A stretch of DNA of 64,000 nucleotides, from assembly GCA_040414495.1 (NCBI GenBank), contig JBEDUI010000081.1, positions 528 to 64,527 on the forward strand, read 5' to 3'. Origin of the DNA: Mycobacteriales bacterium (GTDB lineage: Bacteria > Actinomycetota > Actinomycetes > Mycobacteriales > QHCD01). The position numbers and the translations under genes were made by a program. Below, piece by piece: positions 13,017 through 64,000 of this stretch (the first letter of the stretch is position 1; each line of letters starts with the position of its first letter). The notes beneath the pieces are model-generated. The model did no database searches, was not told the origin of the DNA, and saw nothing but the letters and a program-made list of their open reading frames with translations.

Positions 13017-13241
13017 CCGTTCGCTCACGGCGAATAGCCAGCCGGTTTTCTCAATACGGCCACGGCCCGCTCTGCTAACCTCGCCACCGTGAGGCCCGCA
13101 ACTCAGCACGTATTCGTAGCCACCACCTCGTGGCCGGGTGCGTCATGCCCTCACCGATTCAGCTGATCTGATTCATTGGTGACCCCGGTCGTACCGGGGT
13201 CACGAACTCCCGTACGGCCGGCCTGTCGAAAGGCCGACAAC

Positions 13242-16453: not shown

Positions 16454-16530
16454 GGTGGGTGTAGCTCAGTTGGTAGAGCACCTGGTTGTGGTCCAGGGAG
16501 TCGTGGGTTCAAGTCCCATCACTCACCCCA
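16454..16530 (+). tRNA. tRNA-His (anticodon GTG), with encoded G-1 and 3' CCA
   Basis: Manual cloverleaf: G-1; acceptor GTGGGTG/CACTCAC; D arm GCTC-AGTTGGTA-GAGC; anticodon arm CCTGG-TTGTGGT-CCAGG; T arm GTGGG-TTCAAGT-CCCAT; discriminator C and CCA. Confidence 0.95.
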
Positions 16531-25404: not shown

Positions 25405-25458
25405 CAGCGTCTCCCCCCTCCGGCCTGTCTGCTCGCGCCGACAGCCAACCCCGCGGCA

Positions 25459-26130
25459 ATATCCACAGCCCTGTCCACCGGGCCACTACCGATCGGCCGA
25501 ATCAACGACGGCTTGTGGACAACCGGCTCGACGAATGCACCGATACCACCCTTGCCGATCACGTCCGCGCCGTCGCGCGGCGCGCCGGGCCCGTTGTCCG
25601 ATGTTGCGAACAGCACGCCCCGGCCACCTGCTTTCACAGCGGAGTCCAGGCCGGCCTTTCGGCCCGCCGCCATCGTCACGCCCGGCTTGTCCGTCGACCG
25701 TCGCCCCATGCCCGCCTTGCGCCCCCTGCATCGTCGGATCCGAGCCGGTTAACCGACCCGGATCCGATCCCGCCGCCATGTCGGACCGCCCCGGTCCGTC
25801 CGTCCATCTGTCGACATCTGTCTACATCGAGGGTCTGACATGGCTCGCCCCCAAAACCGCGTCGGAGACCGACTCAGAAACCGACTGGGTGAGGCTAGAG
25901 CCGGTTGCGCCGCCGACTCAATTCCGCCTGTGGGCGAAGCTGCGGACAGCCTGTGGAGGAAGCGGCGCGTCCCTGTGCGGAGAATGCGGACGGCCTGTGG
26001 ATTAGCTTGTGGGAAACGCTCACATAGGGGCGCTGACCTGCGGCTTCACGATCGACAGGCTGTGGACAAAAAATTCCTGGGCTCGATTTGTCATCGACTG
26101 ACGAGCCGCGGCGGTGACCGTTGTGGGCGA
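25459..26130. promoter_or_regulatory. cluster of DnaA-box-like 9-mers in the rplI-dnaB gap
   Basis: Perfect TGTGGACAA at 25514-25522 and 26061-26069. Also TGTGGATTA 25996-26004, TGTGGGAAA 26008-26016, TGTGGGCGA 25929-25937 and 26122-26130, and TGTGGAGGA 25952-25960. On the opposite strand, ATATCCACA 25459-25467 and CTGTCCACC 25471-25479. Confidence 0.6.
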
Positions 26131-26340
26131 ATTCGCCGGGCCGGCTTTCAGCCGTATTGAGCCTCTCTCGCGACCGCTGGTGGGCAAGGCCCACCAAAAG
26201 GCGACGTCAATCCGTAGCCAAGTGCGCTGCGCCAGCCTGGGGCTGGGGACTCGGCGGTTACCGAAAGTCATCGCGACCGCCGCGGCGCCAGATCGGTGCG
26301 CGCCAATGGCCGGAGCGGCCGGACCCGCTCAAGCAGATGG

Positions 26341-26379
26341 CCCGGGTACTCGCCGCCAGAACGACGGCGAGATCCCGGG
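26341..26379 (-). terminator. GC-rich stem-loop just downstream of rplI
   Basis: CCCGGG..CTCGCCG (26341-26355) pairs with CGGCGAG..CCCGGG (26365-26379), with a 2-nt internal mismatch and a 9-nt loop. There is no clear U-tract. Confidence 0.4.
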
Positions 26380-26401
26380 CCTGATCTTGCGGTGCGGTTG
26401 G

Positions 26402-31973: not shown

Positions 31974-33338
31974 ATGACCGAGCCACAGCTACGCCGGATC
32001 CGATGGTGGGCCGACCCGCTCGTCGTGATCGCGCTGGTGGCGTTGGCGGCGTTGCTGCTGGGGGCCTGGCTCATCAAGCAGGGCTGCATCGGCCCGCACT
32101 ACGACCAGTTCGGCATCTCCAGCGCCTTCGGGCCGAACCGCCACAAGGACTACTGCTACTCCGACATCCAACAGCTCTGGCCCTCCCGCGGCATCTCCAC
32201 CCACGTCTTCCCGTACCTACACGGCAATCTGCGGGACGGGGCGCTGACCGGCAGCACGGTCGAGTACCCGGTGCTGACCGGACTGTTCATCTGGCTGACC
32301 GCGCTTGCCGCCCACAACGATGGTCAGTTCATGGCCATCTCGGCCGCCTGCCTGGCCCCGTTCGCGTTGCTGACCGGTGCGCTGCTGGCCCGGCTGACCG
32401 GCCGCCGGGCGCTGATCTTCGCCGCGGCACCGGCGATCCTGTTCTACGCATTCCTGAACTGGGACCTGCTGGCCGTGGCCGCCTTCGTCGCTGCGGTGTG
32501 GTGCTGGTGGCGGGGGCGGCCGGTGAGCGCGGCCGTGCTGCTCGGTGTCGGCGCGGCGTTGAAGCTCTATCCGGGGCTGGGCATCGTGCCGCTGGCCCTG
32601 GCCTTGCTGGTCGAGCGGGACCGGGCCGGCGCGGCCAAGGTGGTCGCCGCCGGCGTCGGTACGTTCATCCTGATCAATCTGCCGTTCGTGCTGGCGAACC
32701 CGCGCGGCTGGTGGGCTACGTACGCGTTCCAGTCGGCCCGGCCCGCCGATATCACCACGAACTCGATCTGGTTCTGGGGTACGCCTTCACTGTCCACCCA
32801 CGACCTGAACCAGCTCACCACCGGACTCATCCTCGCGGCCTGGCTGGTCGCGGTCGGCGTCGGCTGGCTGCGCACCCGCGGCGGTGGACCGTACCCGTGG
32901 TTGCAGGTCACCGCCGCCATGACCTGCGCGTTTCTGGTGCTGAACAAGGTGCATTCGCCGCAGTACGTGTTGTGGGTGCTGCCGTTCCTGGCGCTGATCA
33001 AGGTGCGGTGGGGCTGGTGGGTGGCGTACTGGGTGTTCGACGCGCTGCTGTTCTTCGGTCTCGACCGCTGGTTCTACGTCATCGCGCAGGGTGGTGACGA
33101 CAGCCTGGTCAAGCAGTTGGTCATCCTCGGCGTGTGGGGTCGGGCCGGGACGCTGGCCCTGCTCTACGTGGTATTTCTCGTCACGCCGCTGGCGCTCAAG
33201 CCGGCGAACCGTTGGTCCTTGCCGGTCCAGCCGTCGGGGGCGCCGTCGAGCACCCCGCCGGCCGGATCGTCGACACCGTCGGCCCGCACCACATCCCGAT
33301 CCGGCGCGAGCACGTCCCGGACCACCAGCACGCCGTAA
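31974..33338 (+). CDS. polytopic membrane protein, GT87/DUF2029-type glycosyltransferase-like (Rv0051-like)
   Basis: Many TM segments. Shares with the next gene the motifs CYSDI..L, VEYPVLTGLF, FLNWDLLAVA, GAALKLYP and KVHSPQY. Confidence 0.75.
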   Translation: MTEPQLRRIRWWADPLVVIALVALAALLLGAWLIKQGCIGPHYDQFGISSAFGPNRHKDYCYSDIQQLWPSRGISTHVFPYLHGNLRDGALTGSTVEYPVLTGLFIWLTALAAHNDGQFMAISAACLAPFALLTGALLARLTGRRALIFAAAPAILFYAFLNWDLLAVAAFVAAVWCWWRGRPVSAAVLLGVGAALKLYPGLGIVPLALALLVERDRAGAAKVVAAGVGTFILINLPFVLANPRGWWATYAFQSARPADITTNSIWFWGTPSLSTHDLNQLTTGLILAAWLVAVGVGWLRTRGGGPYPWLQVTAAMTCAFLVLNKVHSPQYVLWVLPFLALIKVRWGWWVAYWVFDALLFFGLDRWFYVIAQGGDDSLVKQLVILGVWGRAGTLALLYVVFLVTPLALKPANRWSLPVQPSGAPSSTPPAGSSTPSARTTSRSGASTSRTTSTP

Positions 33339-35251
33339 AGCACCACCATCAGGTCCCGGACCACCACGACGAGCAGGAACCAGGACTGGTCCAGGCCACG
33401 CACCAGCACGTGGTAGCCCTGGTTGGCATAGTCCTGCTGTTGCATCTGCAGGAACCAGTACATACGCGGGAACCACAGCAGCACCTCGACCGCCTGCCAG
33501 GCCAGGTACGAGCGCCACGAGGGCCGGGCCAGCACCGCCAACGGCACCAGCCACAACGAGTACTGCGGGCTCCACACCTTGTTGGTCAGCAGGAATCCGG
33601 CGACCAGCAGGAACGCCAACTGCGCCACGCGGGGCCGGCGCGGCGCGAAGAGGCCGAGCGCCCCGACACCGAGGCACACCAACACGAACAGCGCCATCGT
33701 GGCGGCGTTCAGCGTGCTCTTGGGGATCGTGGTGCCACCGGCGATCTGCTGCCCGACGTTCCACAATGTGTCCGGGTCGGCCAACCGGCTGGAGTTCAAC
33801 GTGAAGAACTGCTTCCACGCGGTCGGCCACAGCAGCGCGATCGGAATGTTGACCACGGCCCAGCCGACGATCGCCGTACCGAGCGTGACCCCGAATTCCC
33901 GCATCCGCCGGGTTCGCAGGCACAGCACCAACAGCGGGCCGAGCAGGAACAACGGATACAGCTTGGCCGCCGCGCCGAGTCCGAACAGCAGTCCGGCCAG
34001 GCCGTGCCGGCGCCGGGACCAGGCAAGCATTCCGCACGTGGCCAGCGCGACCGCGAACAGATCCCAGTTGGTGAACGCGTGCAGGAACAGCACCGGCGAG
34101 AGCGCCACCATCGCGGCGTCCCAGACCCGGCGGCGGGCCAGCCGGGACACCGCCCAGACGATCACCAGCGCGCAGATGGCCAGCATGATGACCGTGACCT
34201 GCCAGTAGGTCTCGACCGGCGGGGGACGGGGCAGGCCCGAGACGTTGGCCGCGACGCGGTCGTACCCGTGCGCCACCTCGGCCGCGGCGTACATGAAGAA
34301 GCCGGTCAGGACCGGATACTCCATGAGCTGGTTCGGGTCCTGGTTGTGGTACGGCACTTTCTGCTGATCCAGGCCCTTCCCGCTGTACAGCGGGATCACG
34401 TCCGAATAGCACATCCAGACGTATTCCTTGCCCAGCACGAACGCCTTCTGGTTGTTGTTCGTGGCGACCTGCTGGGAGAGCGTCCAGTTGCCGGACTGAC
34501 ACGGCGCCTTCTGCACCCAGCCGAGCAGAAGGGTGAAGATCGCGAACGCCAGTAGCACCCGTAACGGCGTCCAGAACCATTGCCGGCCGATCACGCCGTG
34601 CCGGCCCCACGGCCCGCCGACGACGGTGCTCGCGCCGCGGACGACGGAGTCGCTGCGGCTGGGTACGACCCGCCCGATCAGGCCTCGGCCTACGACCGGA
34701 GAGCCGACGCTGGGCCGGGTCGGCCGGTTTTCCGGTCCCGGTCCGGGCGACGGTGGCTCTGGTCTGTTCGGGGCGAGCCGGATATCGGGTCCTGGCTGTG
34801 GTGGTGCCGCTGGTACGGGCCGCGGTTGAGTCTGGTCTATCGGCTTCGCAGGCGGTCGCGGCTCTCGCTCGGCGGCCGGCGTCGGCTGCGGTGCTCCCGA
34901 CTGCGGCTCTCGCTCGGCGTGCGGTGTCGGCGGGGGCGGTGCTGGCTGTGGCGTTGGGTCGGGATGCCTGGCCTCCACCGGTACCGGTTCGGCCTGTTGT
35001 GCTGTGGCGTCGGTCGACGTCGGCTCAGCCGACGCCGGGTCGGCCGGTGCCGGCTCCGGCCGGCGTGCATTCCCCGGCACCGGGCCGGGCCCGGGTGGGG
35101 GCGTGCCGGCGCGGGAGGATGGCCTCGGCTCGTTGCCGTTCGATCGGCCGTTCGACGCTGGCTCATCGTGGCCATGCGTGCGCTCGGCCGGCTCGGTTTC
35201 CCTCTCGCTCACGGGCCCCATGCTGCCGTACGCGGCTGTGTGCCCACACAC
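33164..35251 (-). CDS. polytopic membrane protein, GT87/DUF2029-type (Rv0051-like) with ~230-aa Pro-rich N-terminal extension
   Basis: MCYSDVIPLY, MEYPVLTGFF, FTNWDLFAVA, GAAAKLYP and KVWSPQY are paralogous to 31974..33338. It follows ponA on the same strand. The start could be ATG 35251 or 35221. Confidence 0.8.
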   Translation of the reverse strand: MCGHTAAYGSMGPVSERETEPAERTHGHDEPASNGRSNGNEPRPSSRAGTPPPGPGPVPGNARRPEPAPADPASAEPTSTDATAQQAEPVPVEARHPDPTPQPAPPPPTPHAEREPQSGAPQPTPAAEREPRPPAKPIDQTQPRPVPAAPPQPGPDIRLAPNRPEPPSPGPGPENRPTRPSVGSPVVGRGLIGRVVPSRSDSVVRGASTVVGGPWGRHGVIGRQWFWTPLRVLLAFAIFTLLLGWVQKAPCQSGNWTLSQQVATNNNQKAFVLGKEYVWMCYSDVIPLYSGKGLDQQKVPYHNQDPNQLMEYPVLTGFFMYAAAEVAHGYDRVAANVSGLPRPPPVETYWQVTVIMLAICALVIVWAVSRLARRRVWDAAMVALSPVLFLHAFTNWDLFAVALATCGMLAWSRRRHGLAGLLFGLGAAAKLYPLFLLGPLLVLCLRTRRMREFGVTLGTAIVGWAVVNIPIALLWPTAWKQFFTLNSSRLADPDTLWNVGQQIAGGTTIPKSTLNAATMALFVLVCLGVGALGLFAPRRPRVAQLAFLLVAGFLLTNKVWSPQYSLWLVPLAVLARPSWRSYLAWQAVEVLLWFPRMYWFLQMQQQDYANQGYHVLVRGLDQSWFLLVVVVRDLMVVLYGVLVVRDVLAPDRDVVRADGVDDPAGGVLDGAPDGWTGKDQRFAGLSASGVTRNTT

Positions 35252-35269
35252 CCCCGCATGGTGTACGGG

Positions 35270-37606
35270 TCAACCAGCGGAGTTGGCGGAGGTCGCCGGT
35301 GCGTTGGTAGGCGGCGAGGACGGACTGGACGAGCGCGGTGCGAGCGTGACCGGCGCGGTCGGTGGTGCCGGCGGCAGGTTCGTGGGCGGCGCGGTCGTTG
35401 GCGGCGGTGTCGTGGTCGGCGGAGCGGTGCTCGTTGGGGGCTGCGTTGTGGGCGGAGGCGTGGTCGTGGGCGGGGTGGTCGTGGGTGCCTGCGTCGGCGG
35501 GAGGGTGGTCGGGACGCTGCTGGATGGTGGCGCGGTCGGAATCGTGCTCGGCAGGCTGCTGCTGGTCGCCGGCGGCACCGAGTCACCGCTGCCGTTGATC
35601 ACCGGCGCGGCCGGCAACGGCTGGTTCGGGCTGTCGGCCAGGTAGGCGTCCATGAACGCCTGCCACGTCTTGCCCGGAAGCCCCGAGCCGTAGACGATTT
35701 CGCCGGCAGCGTTGACGATCGGATCGCTGCCGTCGGTGCCGACCCAGACGGCGGCCGAGACCTTCGGGGTGAAGCCGGCCATCCACGCGTCCTTGTTCTG
35801 CCCGGTCTCGGCCAGCTGCGCGGTACCGGTCTTGGACGCGGTCTGCCGGTCACCGGCCAGCCCGTCGCCGGATGAGCTGGCAACCTGCTCCATCGAGTAC
35901 GTGACGTCGTTGGCGACCTGCGGGGTGAAGACCCGCTTGCCGGCCGGCGTGTGCTGGTAGAGCACCCGCCCCGAGCTGTCGGTGACCTGCTGCACGAAGT
36001 ACGGCGTGTGGCTCACGCCGCCGTCGGCCAGCGTGGCGTAACCGGACGCCTGGTCGATCGGCCGCACCTCGTACTGACCGATCGAAATACCGCCGCCGAC
36101 CTGGCCGTCGCTGTTCTGCAGCGTGGGCTGGTGGTTGTCGTTGCGACGGGTCGGAATGCCGGCCGCGTGCGCGGAGGCGGCCACGGTCTTCGGTCCGACC
36201 TGCAGCCCGATCTTGTAGAAGACGGTGTTCAGCGACATCGTCATGGCCGTGGTGACCGAGCAGAATGAACACGACTCGCCGTCGGAGTTGTGCACGACGA
36301 CGCCGCCGAGCAGCTGACCGCTGGAGCCGTCGTACTCGGTGTTGTCGGTGATATCGGCCTTGCCCTGCTGGGTCTGGGTCAGCGCGGCGGCCAGCACGTA
36401 CGGTTTGAACGTCGACCCGGGCTGCCGCCACGCCTGGGCGTAGTCGAAGCCGTCGCCGCTGGATCCGCCGTAATACGCGAGCACCTTGCCGCTGGACGGG
36501 TCGATCGCGACCAACGCCTGTCGTAGGTTCTTTGGCTGCCCGGCGAACGTCTGGTCCACCGCCGCTTCAGCGTCCTGCTGGGCCTTCGGGTCGATCGTGG
36601 TGACGATCTTCAGGCCGTCCCGGTTGAGCGTGGACTCGTCGACACCATTGGCCGCCAGCTCGGCCTTTACCTGGGCGACGACGTAACCGGCCGGCCCGGA
36701 GGCCTGGTTGAGGGTGGCGTCGCGCCCGATCGGCTTGACGGTCGGATACCGCAGCGTCGCCGCCTGCTGACTGGTGAGCTTGCCCATTTTCACCATGCCG
36801 TTGATAACGAATTGCCAGCGGGCCTTGGCGTTGGCCGGATGGTTTTCCGGGTCGTACAGCGCCGGGGAACGAATGCTGGAGGCCAACACCGCGCCCTGGG
36901 CCACGTTCAGCTCGTTGACCGGCTTTCCGAAATACGTTTCGGCGGCGGCCTCAATGCCGTACGCGCCACGGCCGAAATAGATCGTGTTGAGATACCAATC
37001 CAGGATCTGGTCCTTGGAATACTTCCGATCCAGCTTGACCGCGATAAAGATTTCCCGGAATTTGCGGCTGAACGTGCGCTTCTGGGTGAGGAACGCGTTT
37101 TTCACGTACTGCTGGGTAATCGTCGACCCACCCTGCACGCTTCCACCGCGAATGTCCTCCCACGCGGCCCGGGCAATGCCTTTAGGCGAGATGCCTGGTT
37201 CGGAATAGAAACCGCGGTCCTCGGCCGCGAGCACGTCATTACGCACCTGGACCGGCACCTTGGTGAGCGGAACGTCGGTACGGTTCTGCGCGCCGATCTT
37301 TGCCATCACGGTCTTGCCGTCGGAGTACGTGATCGTCGAAACCTGGTTGGTGGAAATCTGGCTCGGCTTCGGCACCTTGGTCGTGACGTAAAGGAACGTC
37401 ACGCCGCCGATCATGATCAGCAATAGCACCAGGGCGCTGGAGAGGGCGATCTTCCAGCGGCGGCGACGACGCTTCCGCCGCTCAGGGGAGCGCCGATCGG
37501 GTCGCTTCTTCTTCCGTGGCCGCAGATCCTGTTCCGACCATGGCATCGTGCCCCCGTCGTCGAACAGCGGACCGGTTCGGTCCGAGTCCCACGAATCCTT
37601 GCTCAC
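35270..37606 (-). CDS. ponA: class A penicillin-binding protein (bifunctional transglycosylase/transpeptidase, PonA1-like)
   Basis: GT51 motifs (AAEDRGFY, GGSTITQQYVKN, RKxxE) and transpeptidase STFKP (SxxK), SDG and KTGT. The tail is Pro/Thr-rich. Confidence 0.95.
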   Translation of the reverse strand: MSKDSWDSDRTGPLFDDGGTMPWSEQDLRPRKKKRPDRRSPERRKRRRRRWKIALSSALVLLLIMIGGVTFLYVTTKVPKPSQISTNQVSTITYSDGKTVMAKIGAQNRTDVPLTKVPVQVRNDVLAAEDRGFYSEPGISPKGIARAAWEDIRGGSVQGGSTITQQYVKNAFLTQKRTFSRKFREIFIAVKLDRKYSKDQILDWYLNTIYFGRGAYGIEAAAETYFGKPVNELNVAQGAVLASSIRSPALYDPENHPANAKARWQFVINGMVKMGKLTSQQAATLRYPTVKPIGRDATLNQASGPAGYVVAQVKAELAANGVDESTLNRDGLKIVTTIDPKAQQDAEAAVDQTFAGQPKNLRQALVAIDPSSGKVLAYYGGSSGDGFDYAQAWRQPGSTFKPYVLAAALTQTQQGKADITDNTEYDGSSGQLLGGVVVHNSDGESCSFCSVTTAMTMSLNTVFYKIGLQVGPKTVAASAHAAGIPTRRNDNHQPTLQNSDGQVGGGISIGQYEVRPIDQASGYATLADGGVSHTPYFVQQVTDSSGRVLYQHTPAGKRVFTPQVANDVTYSMEQVASSSGDGLAGDRQTASKTGTAQLAETGQNKDAWMAGFTPKVSAAVWVGTDGSDPIVNAAGEIVYGSGLPGKTWQAFMDAYLADSPNQPLPAAPVINGSGDSVPPATSSSLPSTIPTAPPSSSVPTTLPPTQAPTTTPPTTTPPPTTQPPTSTAPPTTTPPPTTAPPTNLPPAPPTAPVTLAPRSSSPSSPPTNAPATSANSAG

Positions 37607-59630: not shown

Positions 59631-61007
59631 GTGCGCGACGTACTGCGAGGCGGTTCATCGAGCGAAGGTCTACCGATTGGTCCGCAGACAGCAGCAGCAA
59701 GCGCCGGCACCACCCTCGATCCGTACGCAGACCGCTACGCAGACCGCACCCGCGGCATGTCGGTCTCGGAGATCCGGGCTTTGTTCGCGGTCGCCAACCG
59801 CCCCGAGATCGTCTCGCTTGCCGGCGGAATGCCCTACACCGCCGCGCTTCCGATCGACGCCGTCGCCGAGATGGTCGGCGAGTTGCTGGCCAACAATGGG
59901 CCAAAGGCGTTGCAGTACGGACCGGGTCAGGGCGACCCCCGACTACGCGAACTGATCTGCGAAGTGATGGCCCTGGAGGGCATCACCGGGTCGGCCGAGG
60001 ACGTCACGGTGACGGTCGGTTCGCAGCAGGCGCTGGATCTGGTCAGCCGGATCTTCATCGACCCGGGCGATGTCGTGTTGGCCGAGGGCCCGTCGTATGT
60101 CGGCGCGCTGGGCACGTTCGAGGCGGCGCAGGCCGAGGTGCGGCACGTACGGATGGACAGCGACGGGCTGATTCCGGAGGCGTTGCGCGAGGCGTTGGAG
60201 CTGTTGCGCAGCCAGGGCCGGCGGGCCAAGTTCCTCTACACAGTGCCGAATTACCACAACCCGGCCGGCGTGACCCTGACGCTGGAGCGGCGGCGCGAGG
60301 TGCTGGCGATCTGCGAGGAGTACGACCTGCTCGTACTCGAGGACAACCCGTACGGGTTGCTCGGCTTCGACGGAGTGATCCAGCCGGCACTGCGGTCGAT
60401 GGCGCCGGACCGGGTGATCTACCTCGGGTCGTTCTCCAAGACGTTCGCCGCCGGAGTCCGGGTCGGCTGGGCGCTGGCGCCGCCGGCGGTACGGCAGAAG
60501 CTGGTGCTGCTGTCCGAGGCCGAGGTGTTGTGCCCGCCGAACCTGACCCAGTTCGTGGTGGCCGAGTACCTCGCGACGCAGCCCTGGCGGGAGCAGCTCA
60601 AGGTGTTCCGGGAGCTGTACCGCGACCGTCGGGATGCGACGTTGGATGCGCTTACGGCGTTGATGCCGGCCGAGTGCACCTGGACCAAGCCGGCCGGTGG
60701 GTTCTACGTCTGGTTGACCCTGCCGGAAGGGCTCGACTCCAAGATCATGCAGCCGCGGGCGATCCACTCCCGGGTCGCTTATGTGCCGGGCATTGGCTTC
60801 TACGCCGATGGCAACGGCCGGCGGGACATGCGGCTCTCGTACTGCTTCCCCGAGCCGGAGCGGATCCGGGAAGGCGTACGGCGGCTGGCCGGAGTCATCG
60901 AGGAAGAGCTCGAGCTGCGGGAGACGTTCCTCGGTGATCGGCCTCAGGCCCAGCACGCGCCGGGTGTCCGGCACGCAAGCGACGCGCCGGGGCCAGACGT
61001 CGCCTGA
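59631..61007 (+). CDS. PLP-dependent aminotransferase, class I/II fold (2-aminoadipate/aromatic aminotransferase-like)
   Basis: ISLAGGMP, YGPGQG, PSYVGAL, VPNYHNPAG and SFSKTFAAGVRVGW (PLP lysine). AGGAGG RBS before GTG 59631. Confidence 0.85.
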   Translation: MRDVLRGGSSSEGLPIGPQTAAASAGTTLDPYADRYADRTRGMSVSEIRALFAVANRPEIVSLAGGMPYTAALPIDAVAEMVGELLANNGPKALQYGPGQGDPRLRELICEVMALEGITGSAEDVTVTVGSQQALDLVSRIFIDPGDVVLAEGPSYVGALGTFEAAQAEVRHVRMDSDGLIPEALREALELLRSQGRRAKFLYTVPNYHNPAGVTLTLERRREVLAICEEYDLLVLEDNPYGLLGFDGVIQPALRSMAPDRVIYLGSFSKTFAAGVRVGWALAPPAVRQKLVLLSEAEVLCPPNLTQFVVAEYLATQPWREQLKVFRELYRDRRDATLDALTALMPAECTWTKPAGGFYVWLTLPEGLDSKIMQPRAIHSRVAYVPGIGFYADGNGRRDMRLSYCFPEPERIREGVRRLAGVIEEELELRETFLGDRPQAQHAPGVRHASDAPGPDVA

Positions 61008-61092
61008 CTCGCACGTATGCTCTCCCGCGCATGGTTGATTCGTGTGGGGGTGCCGGCGGGGCTCCGTTCCCGGGGTTCTGTGACCGGCGTAC

Positions 61093-62124
61093 ATGAGCGG
61101 AGCGGGCGTGGATTCGAAGTCGGTAGTGACCAGTGACGTCCCGGCAAGCCAGCCCGGCGAGGACCTGCACGCGGTGGTCCTCGCCGGCGGCCTGGCCTAC
61201 GAGCGCGAGGTGTCGTTGTCCTCGGGTCGCCGGGTGGCCGACGCGTTGCACCGGGCGGGCGCGGATGCGCTGATCATCGACGCCGACGCCGAGCTGGTGT
61301 CCCGGTTGACCACGACCCGGCCCGATGCGGTGTTCATCGCGCTGCATGGTTCGTCCGGCGAGGACGGCGCGCTGCGGGGCGTACTGGATCTGCTGGACGT
61401 GCCGTACGTCGGCAGCTCAGCGGTCGCGTGCCGCGCCGCGTGGGACAAGCCGACCGCCAAGGCCGTGGTTCGAGCGGTCGGGGTCGCGACGCCGGACTGG
61501 ATCGCGCTGCCCCAGACGACGTTCCGGGAACTCGGCGCGGGCGAGGTCCTGGATCGGTTGGTCACCCGGTTCGGGGTGCCGTTGATTGTGAAGCCGGCCC
61601 AGGGCGGCTCGGCGCTGGGGACGCAGTTGGTCACCGACGTGGCCGACCTGCCGGCCGCGATGGTCGGCTGCTTCTCGTACGCCGACACGGTGCTGGTCGA
61701 GCGGTACGTGCGTGGGGTCGAGGTTGCGGTGAGCGTGCTCGACGACGGTTCCGGTGCCCAGGCGCTGCCGGCGGTGGAGATCGTGGCGTCGGCGGGGATC
61801 TTCGACTACGCGTCGCGGTACACGTCCGGGATGACGACGTACCACACGCCGGCCCGGCTGGAGCCGGATACGGCGGCCGCGCTGGCTTCGATGGCGGTGA
61901 CGACGCACCAGGCTTTGGGGCTGCGGGACCTGTCCCGGGTCGACGCGATCGTCACCGCCGACGGGCGGATCGAGTTCCTCGAAGTCAACGTCGCGCCGGG
62001 CATGACGGAGACCAGCCTGTTCCCCATGGCAGTGGCCGCTGCCGGTCTGGATCTCGGTGAGCTGTGCGTGCGGCTGCTCTCGCAGGCGGCGAGCCGGTCG
62101 CGTGGCGGTACCCCGGCGGTCTGA
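61093..62124 (+). CDS. ddl: D-alanine--D-alanine ligase
   Basis: VVLAGGLAYEREVSLSSG, ALHGSSGEDGALRGVLDLLDVPYVGS, LIVKPAQGGSALG and EVNVAPGMTETSLFP. Confidence 0.9.
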   Translation: MSGAGVDSKSVVTSDVPASQPGEDLHAVVLAGGLAYEREVSLSSGRRVADALHRAGADALIIDADAELVSRLTTTRPDAVFIALHGSSGEDGALRGVLDLLDVPYVGSSAVACRAAWDKPTAKAVVRAVGVATPDWIALPQTTFRELGAGEVLDRLVTRFGVPLIVKPAQGGSALGTQLVTDVADLPAAMVGCFSYADTVLVERYVRGVEVAVSVLDDGSGAQALPAVEIVASAGIFDYASRYTSGMTTYHTPARLEPDTAAALASMAVTTHQALGLRDLSRVDAIVTADGRIEFLEVNVAPGMTETSLFPMAVAAAGLDLGELCVRLLSQAASRSRGGTPAV

Positions 62125-62250
62125 GCTTTTACTCCGTCGCTGCCCGGCACGGTTACTTTCTGGTCTTCGTCGTGGCGCGGCCGTTTGCTGCGACTGTACG
62201 GCCGCCGCGTCCGGGTCAGGCTTTCCGTAATAGTCAGCTGCAATCCTCGT

Positions 62251-62294
62251 GATTTCCGTGCCGCACGTCCCTCTCTCGATTTCCGTGCCGCACG
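62251..62294 (+). repeat. 17-bp perfect direct repeat pair
   Basis: GATTTCCGTGCCGCACG occurs at 62251-62267 and 62278-62294, 27 bp start-to-start. Confidence 0.9.
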
Positions 62295-62530
62295 CCTCCC
62301 GGTTGGGCTTTAGCAATCCCCGCGATCCGCGACCGTTTCGGCGCCGCCGGACCCCCCGGTCAGACCGTCGCCTAATGCGCAGCCAGCCGTGCCATGCCCG
62401 TCGCTCCCGGCCGGTCTTCCGGCAATGCCCAGCCACATGCTGCCCTTCGCCGCACTGCCCGCGGTCGACCTTCCGGCGATGCCCGGCGCTCGGCTGGCCC
62501 GGACCTCACACCGCTACTTACCGGGCGACC

Positions 62531-62900
62531 CATTCATTCGGCCCTTGTGCGTCGCCCACGGGCGCTGGCTATCGGCGGCTCCCGCTCGATCTTGCTTCCC
62601 GGTCGGTGTTCTCGGTCTCTTCTGCGTCGCCCGGACGGATCCCCGTCTGACGGGCGCGGCGATCGTTCGATCCTGCTTCCCCACCGGCCATTCGTTCGGT
62701 GCTTGTGCTTCGCCTACCCGCGGGTGATCGCTCGCCTATCGGGTGAGTCTCGTGTTCGATCCTGCTTCCCCACCGGCCCGCTCGACTGGCTCTTCTACGT
62801 CGCGCACCTGCCAGGCGGTCACTGTCTCGGCCTCGTGTTCGATCCCGCTTCCCCGCTAGCCCTTCCGTTCGGCCTTGTACGTCGCGCACCTTCCGGGCTC
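62531..62900 (+). repeat. degenerate tandem repeat, 4-5 units of ~81-89 bp, non-coding
   Basis: Core GTTCGATCCTGCTTCCCCACCGGCC at 62665-62689 and 62754-62778, with variants at 62837-62861 and 62584-62606. A second conserved block cattc[ag]ttcgg..cttgt[ga]c.tcgc sits at 62531, 62689 and 62861. The unit lengths (81, 89, 83) are not consistently multiples of three. Confidence 0.8.
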
Positions 62901-64000
62901 CCGGCCTCCGCGGCCTCCCGCCGGCATCTTCGTACTGCCTCACTGTCCGCGGCTCCAGCTCTCCGTGCCGCCACTGTCGCTCATCGGTGCAGTACCTGTG
63001 TTTCTGCTCTCTGGTCAGTCTTCCCAGCGTCGTCATGTTCGCGGTCGGGCTGCGTCGCCTTTGCCTGATCGGTCACCGGTGCGCCGCCAGCCGCTGCGCG
63101 TGCCGCCGGATCCTGCCGAGTGCTCAGACTGTCGGCTGGGCCGGCGACCTCCCGAGTCGGACTTCAGTCCCGCCCGATGTACCGGCCCGTTCGTCTCCCC
63201 CTGCCTTCGACCTGACTGGAGCGCGACATTCGTACGGCATCCTCTGCGCTCGCCCTGGCCCTGAGCCGACCTAAGTCCTCGCTATGCCCCGGTCGTCAAC
63301 CCCGGCCGGCCAGGGAGGCCGTCGCTTGGGTTTTGACACCGCCGAACTTTCGCTCGACTCGCCGGAGGTTTGACGCTGTTCAGCCTTCGCCGATTACCCG
63401 ACTCGCCTTCACCGAGTCGCAGACCGGGCACCTCGCCCAGTGCTTCGGTTGTTCGTCACTCCCTGCTTTTTCGACCCTTCGAGAACCCGGGTCTTGACGG
63501 CTCCTCGGGTACTGCCCCGATCCACGCCCGCCGCCGATTTGGATCGTCGCGACCTCTTCTTCCCGCCGGGTTACGTCGCCAGACACGGCCGGGTTTCGTC
63601 GCCAGGCGTGATCGGCCAGCCGAATCGGCCGGTTGGGAGTTTGCTAGCAGTGATCAGCTGGCGTTCGACCCGCGGTACAGGCACAGGTGTGGCAGCAACG
63701 TCTGGCACGCACTTGTTGGGATAGCTCGGACACGCCCTCTTCGGTAGCTTCGGACTCCTCATTGCCCGACCACCCGACGTCGATCGCGCGGCGAGCCTGG
63801 TCGGCTCTGCGCTGGATCGTGTGTGCGCGAACTGTCGCGCAGTCCGCTGTCGAGTCACCTGCACTCGTCGTCCAGTCTGAGGAGGCAGTCCCTTCGGTCC
63901 GGCGGCTCATACGGCTCCGCTCCCGCCGCGACCCGAGCCTGTTCGGAGAGGCGCCGGGCCCGACCACGCGATGCGGCGAGTCGAACGGATGGCGCGTGCT

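Follow-up and report, generated by a model that had tools for sequence, protein, structure and literature searches.

Mycobacterial interspersed repetitive units (MIRUs), which are bacterial minisatellite or VNTR loci, range in size from tens of bases to about 100 bp and are dispersed over about 40 loci, and the rut sites of Rho-dependent terminators are roughly 80-100 nt long. The passages cited here describe MIRUs as minisatellites with copy-number variation (PMC3635867). Canonical Rut sites are pyrimidine- and YC-rich with a C>G bias, and full-length mycobacterial Rho has been reported to select less canonical sites (PMC13650167). Clusters of parS sites and DnaA boxes are arrays of short motifs within enlarged intergenic DNA near parAB and oriC.

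The window analyzed here is a 64,000-nt stretch of a genome of the Mycobacteriales. From the stop codon of ddl to the end of the window, at 62125-64000, it is genuinely non-coding, rich in pyrimidines on one strand and in part the product of local tandem duplications. An earlier note, made from the same letters, had singled out this tract and offered several readings of it.

The tract shares some properties with each of the systems above. Like MIRUs, its main array is made of head-to-tail units (66-87 nt, within a range of about 40-100 bp) in intergenic actinobacterial DNA. A proposed slippage or unequal-exchange origin and variability between close relatives are further points of likeness. 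The units are, however, far more diverged than those of MIRUs, and the array occupies only 0.4 kb of a strongly strand-biased tract of at least 1.9 kb. A dispersed family was not seen, as no other copy of the unit occurs in the 64 kb, and relatives carry unrelated sequence rather than a different copy number.

RNA read from the plus strand of the tract would resemble that of rut regions: it would lie 3' of a stop codon, be untranslated, pyrimidine- and YC-rich with C>G, and perhaps be weakly structured. This composition fits a Rho substrate, a role that is predicted. In length, the 1.5 kb of the tract differs from the roughly 80-100 nt of a rut site. As in parS and DnaA-box clusters, short motifs are arrayed in enlarged intergenic DNA near parAB and oriC, but the motifs of the tract are direct and orientation-locked instead of palindromic. 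Scans for GTTTCACGTGAAAC and TTGTCCACA, allowing 3 mismatches for parS and 1 for the DnaA box, found no parS site in the window and no DnaA box in the tract.

The tract is non-coding and strand-asymmetric

Codon periodicity, assessed by GC content at the codon positions, is absent throughout the 1.9 kb 3' of ddl. The spread between codon positions was 0.00-0.19 in all 240-nt windows from 62021 to 63761, compared with 0.35-0.54 within ddl and the aminotransferase gene, and the tract is the longest periodicity-free stretch of the whole 64 kb. The real genes of the window have a GC3 of 0.81-0.91; no tract ORF of at least 60 aa exceeded 0.75. Ten tract ORFs had no match in Pfam. A tblastn search of the tract with 1,123 proteins from syntenic loci gave no meaningful match, the three short ones that appeared (21-39 aa, E of 0.002-0.008) being taken as chance. 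Thus, neither the GC periodicity nor the detectable homologues of a protein-coding gene or recent pseudogene were found in the tract. The earlier note had held that no ORF after ddl looks coding and that third-position GC is unremarkable, and periodicity, GC3, Pfam and tblastn agree. The identity of ddl itself is supported by Dala_Dala_lig Pfam domains on an identical Logan product.

An open minus-strand frame at 63644-64000 was considered as a gene and rejected, its GC content by codon position being about 0.62/0.70/0.79. The sole phmmer match of this frame among 1.84 billion representatives (E of 7.8e-5) was judged spurious: it was repeat-inflated and fell on an unrelated, low-GC TPR-like protein.

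The plus strand of 62125-64000 is composed of 10.6% A, 22.1% T, 38.1% C and 29.2% G, compared with 15.5%, 16.7%, 34.3% and 33.5% for the whole window. The GC content of the tract, about 67%, equals that of the genome. In the 1,500-nt segment from 62101 onward the purine fraction falls to 0.377, the minimum of the window (mean of 0.491, standard deviation of 0.021). C exceeds G and T exceeds A in fifteen consecutive 100-nt bins (62200-63599); the excess of T over A is present already from 62000, and the skew weakens past about 63600. Within the skewed tract, C outnumbers G in 95% of 78-nt windows, with a median C/G ratio of 1.5, and the density of YC dinucleotides is 0.235 as opposed to 0.168 in the window. 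The pyrimidine skew and A-poverty described in the earlier note are therefore upheld when computed over the full tract, which includes the most extreme 1.5 kb of the window. Its local counts were correct for 63361-63480 (14 A, 32 T) and for the 8 A of 62581-62700, where there are 32 T rather than 33.

Repeats account for about a third of the tract

Using 18-mers with at least 16 matches and a spacing of 10-100 as the definition of a local direct repeat, we found seven such repeats, as opposed to 0.01 +/- 0.12 in 200 dinucleotide shuffles. The principal features are listed in Table 1. All repeats named in the earlier note were located where it had placed them. Its array of about 85 bp, given as 62531-62900, is likewise real, but it is degenerate and its five units extend over slightly different coordinates.

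Table 1. Features of ddl and of the non-coding DNA downstream of it
Feature	Position	Strand	Description
ddl (D-alanine--D-alanine ligase)	61093-62124	+	343-aa ORF, GC3 0.90; last gene before the tract
Strand-skewed non-coding tract	62125-63600	.	Plus strand C/T-rich and A-poor; minus strand purine-rich
CGTCGC hexamer, twelve copies	62135-63602	+	None on the minus strand; spread across the whole skewed tract
Direct repeat pair	62246-62294	+	22 nt, 91% identity, 27-nt spacing, CTC[GT][TC]GATTTCCGTGCCGCACG
Direct repeat pair	62403-62487	+	31 nt, 77% identity, 54-nt spacing, contains CTTCCGGC[AG]ATGCCC
Degenerate tandem array, minisatellite-like	62509-62902	+	Five units of 66-87 nt; core GTTCGATCCTGCTTCCCCACCGGCC
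Direct repeat pair	63565-63605	+	18 nt, 94% identity, 23-nt spacing, GCCGGGTT[AT]CGTCGCCAG
Ordinary-composition non-coding tail	63601-64000	.	Skew fades; continues to the window end

The units of the array have a mean column identity of 66%, and their lengths are not multiples of 3. The array matched itself in BLAST with an E of 4e-13. An nhmmer profile of the unit recovered exactly the five array units (E of 2.7e-17 to 2.6e-9) and no further copy in the rest of the tract or of the 64 kb. Since the profile matched only the five known units, we rejected the idea that an ancient array of 85-nt units makes up the entire tract. A TRF run missed the array at 62509-62902. A 25-mer from the array core was not found in metagenome contigs, in a collection that also missed a control JGI-contig pattern, so that this negative weighs little. 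A CRISPR array was considered as well and discarded: the repeats are merely 72-81% identical, and the segments between the cores are homologous from unit to unit. As for IS, MITE or other integrated elements, no strong inverted repeats, element genes or other copies were seen as far as the end of the window. Overall, the demonstrably repeat-derived share of the tract is only about a third. Ungapped autocorrelation of the tract was uninformative on 85-nt periodicity.

The most frequent hexamer of the tract is CGTCGC, with 12 copies versus 2.8 +/- 1.6 in 1,000 dinucleotide shuffles; elsewhere in the window it occurs 2.0 +/- 1.5 times per 1,526 nt. The tetramer TTCG is also enriched (23 copies in 62125-63650 versus 8.8 expected). 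The many cTTCGg strings of the earlier note are an overstatement, as CTTCGG occurs only 4 times.

RNA and promoter signals

Rfam searches of both strands of 61500-64000 gave no match at E<=1, and the sole match at gathering score in the whole window was a tRNA-His at 16455. ARAGORN found no tRNA in the tract. The GTTCGATCC...CCACC core had been suspected of likeness to a tRNA 3' end, which neither Rfam nor ARAGORN backed. Folding z-scores for four 1-kb pieces and the ddl-proximal 216 nt ranged from +0.33 to +1.65 on both strands; those of the plus strand, from 20 shuffles each, were +1.65 for 62125-63124 and +0.85 for 63001-64000. Thus, neither strand folds better than its shuffles.

A promoter and terminator signal scan of the tract returned neither a promoter-like site nor a terminator signal, and no sigma-70-type pair of -35 and -10 elements with 16-18 nt spacing is present in it. 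TANNNT occurs once per strand across 1.5 kb. The three TTGAC(A/G) hexamers of the earlier note do exist, at 63333, 63370 and 63494, close to where it had put them, and none of the three is followed by TANNNT 15-20 nt downstream. The proposal of a multi-promoter leader finds no support in these results, given the lack of promoter-like sites and of -10 partners for the hexamers.

The ddl-parB junction in relatives

Four related lineages have ddl and parB in convergent orientation, with no more than 60 nt between them. The gap between them is 24 nt in L086-L090, 34 nt in L082 and 60 nt in L083, and the two genes overlap in L091. In L085 the gap is 541 nt and contains unrelated sequence. The nearest relative, L092, aligns at 89.4% nucleotide identity over 60562-62125 of the window and not beyond; the alignment ends exactly at the ddl stop codon. 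Past this point L092 has unrelated non-coding DNA for at least 472 nt, including a 58-nt tandem duplication without mismatches that suggests the same duplication process has acted recently. Depletion of A is common to the long gaps of L085 and L092, but L085 has only a weak C>G bias and L092 has none.

Comparison of the tract with more than 80 related loci revealed no DNA similarity beyond chance. A tblastn search of the window with the ParB of a relative gave no match, and no more than 815 nt of the source contig lie past the window. In relatives, 2-7 parS sites are located nearby. The earlier note had expected parB-parA soon after the cwlM/GNAT block; in relatives parB directly follows ddl, at the place taken here by the tract. 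Given this order, the tract is, as far as these alignments indicate, lineage-specific extra DNA without a counterpart even in the closest relatives, and the ddl-parB junction is hypervariable.

Skewed spacers in Nonomuraea

In Nonomuraea, spacers of the same type occur independently next to ddl, parB and parA. They reach 2.2 kb, are non-coding, strongly skewed and built of tandem repeats, and cannot be aligned with one another even though the flanking genes align at 79-92%. The tract has in common with them, and with those of related Streptosporangiales, its kilobase scale, skew, degenerate tandem repeats, location at an oriC-proximal junction and lack of alignability. The Nonomuraea spacers differ in being purer (purine fraction of 0.21-0.31 versus 0.38 in the tract), in having younger repeats, in lying 5' of ddl or in the parB-parA interval instead of after ddl, and in having no sequence similarity to the window. 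Our literature searches turned up no account of such repeat-built polypyrimidine spacers at these genes.

The polarity of the skew flips within single parB-parA spacers of Nonomuraea (L045, L060), so that neither the direction of replication nor a single direction of transcription sets it. Replication-strand bias was accordingly rejected as the cause of skew, both polarities being found on one replichore and even in one spacer. No known mutational bias predicts C>G together with T>A at such strength. Strongly skewed gaps between co-directional genes had a pyrimidine-rich sense strand in 12 of 14 cases, many of which represent the same orthologous junction in related species and are not independent. 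Skewed tracts were located at ddl or on its oriC side in 32 of 36 cases. Arrays numbered 0.9-1.3 per kb on the oriC side of ddl compared with 0.5-0.85 on the other side, an excess of which much stems from more uncalled DNA on the oriC side.

Origin and possible role of the tract

On balance, we favor by a little the view that the tract is a lineage-specific, fast-turnover spacer that serial duplication of local sequence has enlarged where ddl and parB converge, a few kb from oriC. The junction spans at most 60 nt in related genomes, and at least 1.9 kb have accumulated here. Part of this DNA demonstrably derives from local tandem duplication of units of 22, 31, about 85 and 18 nt, which have since diverged. 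The whole tract may have grown by repeated slippage or unequal-exchange duplication of a pyrimidine-rich seed, and duplication of such a seed would explain why the strand bias and the orientation-locked CGTCGC are shared over 1.5 kb. Extending a duplication origin to the entire tract is an extrapolation, as the 85-nt profile finds nothing in the remainder.

The tract would have no sequence-specific function under this duplication scenario, and its only plausible effect would depend on composition. Transcripts that run on past ddl would not be translated and would be C/U-rich, poor in G and A and weakly folded, as is the classic loading substrate of the termination factor Rho. The near-absence of -10 motifs (TANNNT) on both strands would leave the DNA promoter-poor. 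With Rho-substrate RNA and few -10 motifs, the tract may be a passive buffer that ends transcription and insulates the convergent ddl and par units from each other. Counting against such a Rho buffer, Rho needs about 100 nt and the tract offers 1.5 kb. Useless DNA is normally deleted from bacterial genomes, so that 1.9 kb without any function would in turn be out of the ordinary.

Selection could instead act on composition alone. Pyrimidine-rich spacers near oriC would then be kept as Rho-loading zones or insulators while their sequence is free to change, or asymmetric, repeat-rich DNA would be needed beside the partition locus in some other way. The recurrence of skewed, repeat-built and unalignable spacers at the same junctions in unrelated actinobacterial lineages speaks for selection, together with the rut-like composition of the tract, the sense-strand preference in 12 of 14 gaps and the position of 32 of 36 skewed tracts at ddl or on its oriC side. 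We nevertheless regard it as unlikely: many of the 14 gaps are orthologous, polarity flips inside single parB-parA spacers (L045, L060), a junction of at most 60 nt suffices in four close relatives, and the oriC-side repeat excess owes much to the uncalled DNA there. It is still less probable that a mobile or integrated element entered between ddl and parB and that the tract is its non-coding end or scar, with the remainder of the element beyond the window. Such an insertion would account for the break in nearest-relative homology exactly at the ddl stop codon, for the different unrelated DNA that two relatives carry at this position, as at an integration hotspot, and for the end of the source contig within 815 nt, contigs often ending at repeated elements. 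However, the 1.9 kb yielded no coding remnant and have the GC content of the genome, about 67%; no tRNA, att-like site or convincing terminal inverted repeats were found; plasmid and phage databases gave no match; and there is no second copy in the 64 kb. The decayed element or integration scar of the earlier note thus gains nothing from the searches for coding remnants, plasmid or phage matches and further copies in the window.

We consider it very improbable that the tract is an artefact, that is, the chimeric or collapsed contig end of a metagenome-assembled genome. It does lie within about 2.7 kb of the contig end, an independently assembled Logan contig of the same strain covers only its first 156 nt (up to 62280), and the ParB that most likely belongs to the same genome lies on a separate 16.6-kb contig, a weak inference. 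Yet those first 156 nt are identical in the independent assembly, the GC content matches that of the genome, repeats diverged to 66-91% identity cannot come from an assembler, and L085 and L092 independently have long non-coding DNA at the same junction. Least probable of all is a long non-coding RNA, whether a C/U-rich one read from the plus strand or a purine-rich one read from the minus strand. The structured RNA proposed in the earlier note meets with no Rfam match at E<=1, shuffle-level folding on both strands, no promoter-like site, no homologue even where the flank is 89% identical, and no conserved sequence on which structure could be tested. These outweigh the length, non-coding nature and strand asymmetry of the tract, and the SD-like purine motifs of the minus strand, which are at the top of the background range (27 versus 11 +/- 5).

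A broader reading, which we put forward as a long shot, is that kilobase-scale, fast-turnover, strand-asymmetric, repeat-built spacers recur under selection for composition in the oriC-proximal ddl-parB-parA region of several actinobacterial lineages. They could be Rho-loading or insulating buffers that keep convergent or read-through transcription out of the partition operon and ddl. Asymmetric, non-B-prone DNA could also matter for ParB spreading or for the organization of the origin region. The tract of this window would then be an old and degenerate case.

By itself, the tract is a stretch of apparently functionless DNA that is unusually long for a compact bacterial genome. Its main use is as a warning against annotating genes or RNAs there, and it is a possible strain-typing locus. 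Its wider interest is that distant actinobacteria repeatedly enlarge the same partition-gene junctions by skewed, repeat-derived DNA whose rapid evolution defeats alignment. If the composition of this DNA is selected and does not reflect a mutational hotspot, it would indicate that high-GC bacteria have an unrecognized layer of insulation between transcription units or of architecture in the origin region, and such spacers would be natural test sequences for the choice of sites by actinobacterial Rho.

Coding potential and composition of the DNA downstream of ddl

The conserved gene block that precedes this DNA reads murJ, ECF sigma and anti-sigma genes, trxB, trxA, cwlM, a conserved minus-strand gene, an aminotransferase gene, and ddl. 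From 62125 to the end of the window no coding signal was detected, in agreement with the earlier note. The codon-position GC difference was 0.00 to 0.19 in every 240-nt window of the tract, as opposed to 0.35 to 0.54 in the neighboring genes, and none of its ORFs of at least 60 codons reached a GC3 of 0.76 (0.81 to 0.91 in the real genes of the window). The tract is the longest periodicity-free stretch of the 64 kb. A detectable gene remnant was rejected as well: translations of ten ORFs had no Pfam match, tblastn with 1,123 proteins from syntenic loci gave no meaningful match (three short matches, E = 0.002 to 0.008, were read as chance), and a search of 1.84 billion representatives gave no credible relative for the frame still open where the window ends.

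The second-longest periodicity-free stretch, about 1 kb (25405 to 26401), lies between two minus-strand genes and carries two perfect DnaA-box nonamers, TTGTCCACA, at 25514 and 26061 on the minus strand; the whole window contains 13 DnaA boxes within 1 mismatch (8.1 ± 2.6 expected). The sole Rfam or ARAGORN match in the 64 kb, a tRNA-His (GTG) at 16455 to 16530, starts a 1.6-kb stretch left uncalled by the crude gene caller.

The plus strand of the tract consists of 10.6% A, 22.1% T, 38.1% C, and 29.2% G. Earlier base counts proved essentially correct on recount. The purine fraction was 0.377 in the 1,500 nt starting at 62101, the lowest of the window (mean, 0.491; SD, 0.021). C>G and T>A were both seen in each of the 100-nt bins between 62200 and 63599. 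The excess of T over A is present already from 62000, and the bias fades past 63600; the feature therefore comprises a skewed tract and a tail of ordinary composition. Elsewhere, positions 34531 to 35430 are A depleted (7 to 9% A), G rich, and weak in codon periodicity; they fall inside or between large minus-strand genes (33164 to 35251 and 35270 to 37606) and may be a low-complexity coding segment.

Features of the ddl junction and of comparable Nonomuraea loci (L numbers denote related loci)
Feature	Position	Strand	Basis or remark
ddl	61093-62124	+	Final gene of conserved origin-proximal block
Skewed tract, ~1.5 kb	Up to ~63600	Plus strand pyrimidine rich	100-nt bins
Noncoding tail, ~0.4 kb	After ~63600 to 64000		Ordinary composition; 100-nt bins
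Short direct repeat pair	62246/62273	+	Direct-repeat search
Short direct repeat pair	62403/62457	+	Direct-repeat search
Degenerate tandem array, five units of 66-87 nt	62509-62902	+	Alignment, profile HMM
Short direct repeat pair	63565/63588	+	Direct-repeat search
Polypyrimidine repeat-built spacer (Nonomuraea)	L064 8498-9750
Polypyrimidine repeat-built spacer (Nonomuraea)	L056 9480-9960
Polypyrimidine repeat-built spacer (Nonomuraea)	L045 14863-17035
Polypyrimidine repeat-built spacer (Nonomuraea)	L008 10960-11400

Local duplications

A fixed criterion yielded seven local direct repeats, where dinucleotide shuffles would give 0.01. When the window was searched with a profile HMM of the array unit, exactly the five copies were recovered and no others. 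Unit lengths are not divisible by three, and TRF misses the array because its copies are only about 66 to 80% alike. Between 62135 and 63602 the plus strand carries 12 copies of the hexamer CGTCGC (2.8 ± 1.6 in shuffles), and the minus strand has none. The copies span the whole skewed tract, including parts without any other detectable repeat. Several of the distances between them approximate multiples of some 80 nt, and their flanks show no extended consensus. Repeat coordinates in the earlier note were essentially right, but its "many" cTTCGg strings amount to four occurrences of CTTCGG.

The ddl junction in related genomes

The evidence that decides on the tract comes from its relatives, which vary sharply in the junction that follows ddl: ddl and parB are convergent and 34 nt apart in L082 (ddl protein 89% identical), separated by 60 nt in L083 (85%) and by 24 nt in L086 to L090 (83%), and overlapping in L091. 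In L085 (84%) a 541-nt noncoding gap is likewise A poor and T rich and has no similarity to the tract. The closest relative, L092, shares 89.4% DNA identity over 1.58 kb, ending at the ddl stop codon; at least 472 nt of noncoding DNA unrelated to the window follow, with a perfect 58-nt tandem duplication (1838 to 1953), apparently a recent outcome of the same sort of process. Scanning metagenome_contigs for a 24-mer copied from this locus (JGI contig Ga0572181_0198018) gave no match, so nulls from that collection are weak. No similarity to the tract beyond chance was found in the related loci. At this junction, then, noncoding DNA arises, undergoes local duplication, and turns over too quickly for alignment; at the level of sequence, a conserved cis-element or RNA is thereby excluded.

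Tracts of this kind also occur outside the clade. Several spacers in Nonomuraea and related genera (aminotransferase gene-ddl, after ddl, and parB-parA) hold 0.5 to 2.2 kb of noncoding degenerate tandem repeats with purine fractions down to 0.21; those of Nonomuraea are very pure polypyrimidine. Between species, the flanking genes align at 79 to 92%, whereas the spacers are unalignable. Of 14 strongly skewed gaps between codirectional genes, 12 are pyrimidine rich on the sense strand; many of the 14, however, represent the same orthologous junction. Skew polarity flips within single parB-parA spacers. This speaks against an origin of the skew in replication direction or in a single direction of transcription and agrees with the amplification of seeds of arbitrary orientation. 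Over the outermost 9 kb to either side of ddl in 57 loci, 195 noncoding tandem arrays lie on the oriC side and 59 on the other, much of this excess being due to more uncalled DNA there (0.9 to 1.3 versus 0.5 to 0.85 arrays per kb).

Four exact parS-like sites, GATGTTTCACGTGAAACATC, occur at 13028 to 13661 of L083, within the 940 nt that separate the called parA and rsmG genes. Nonomuraea loci instead have 4 to 6 parS sites clustered immediately past the 3' end of parB.

Origin and possible role of the tract

The tract is most likely a lineage-specific spacer at a convergent ddl/parB junction, and we give somewhat better than even chances to its being neutral and hypervariable. Such a spacer would have grown through serial local duplication and then diverged. 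The data establish the duplications themselves, the hypervariability of the junction, and the lack of a coding, RNA, or motif signal. The unrepeated two-thirds probably share this origin, and the common strand bias and CGTCGC enrichment would be inherited from the amplified seed sequence. parB presumably follows. The source contig, metagenome assembled and from NCBI, is 64,815 nt long and therefore extends at most 815 nt beyond the window. No sequence-specific role is expected.

C exceeds G in 95% of 78-nt windows, YC density is high, and structure is probably weak, so any ddl read-through transcript would be a good predicted Rho substrate (canonical Rut features are described in PMC13650167). 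Owing to the strand-asymmetric A depletion, -10-like motifs are almost absent from either strand. These properties lead us to propose a single role, a passive termination and insulation buffer, and 1.5 kb far exceeds what it would need. A promoter array, suggested earlier as an extended multipromoter leader, was rejected: the promoter scan was empty, each strand has a single TANNNT in 1.5 kb, and the three TTGACR hexamers all lack a -10 partner. Neither parS (within 3 mismatches, whole window) nor a DnaA box (within 1 mismatch, tract) was present, and a cluster of either was rejected.

Among the rival readings, selection on composition, making the tract a functional element, is possible but doubtful. 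The end of a mobile element is less likely still, the tract having no match in known plasmid or phage sequence. An assembly artifact in this metagenome-derived contig is improbable; the first 156 nt were confirmed by a Logan assembly obtained independently for the same strain. We give least credence to a long noncoding RNA, which the earlier note had envisaged as structured. Rfam gave no family at E ≤ 1 over the tract, no tRNA was found there, and neither strand folded better than shuffled sequence (z, +0.33 to +1.65); known and structured RNAs were thus both rejected.

The array resembles minisatellites or VNTRs (MIRU, for example) in the size of its units, its intergenic location, and the way it originated, but within the data available it does not form a dispersed family of the MIRU type. 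By its composition, the skewed part is similar to a rut region but oversized. The literature searched gave no account of tracts like these in actinobacteria, and we file this one under an already known kind, hypervariable repeat-derived intergenic DNA. The recurrence of such spacers next to partition genes across lineages is the one aspect that merits a systematic survey.
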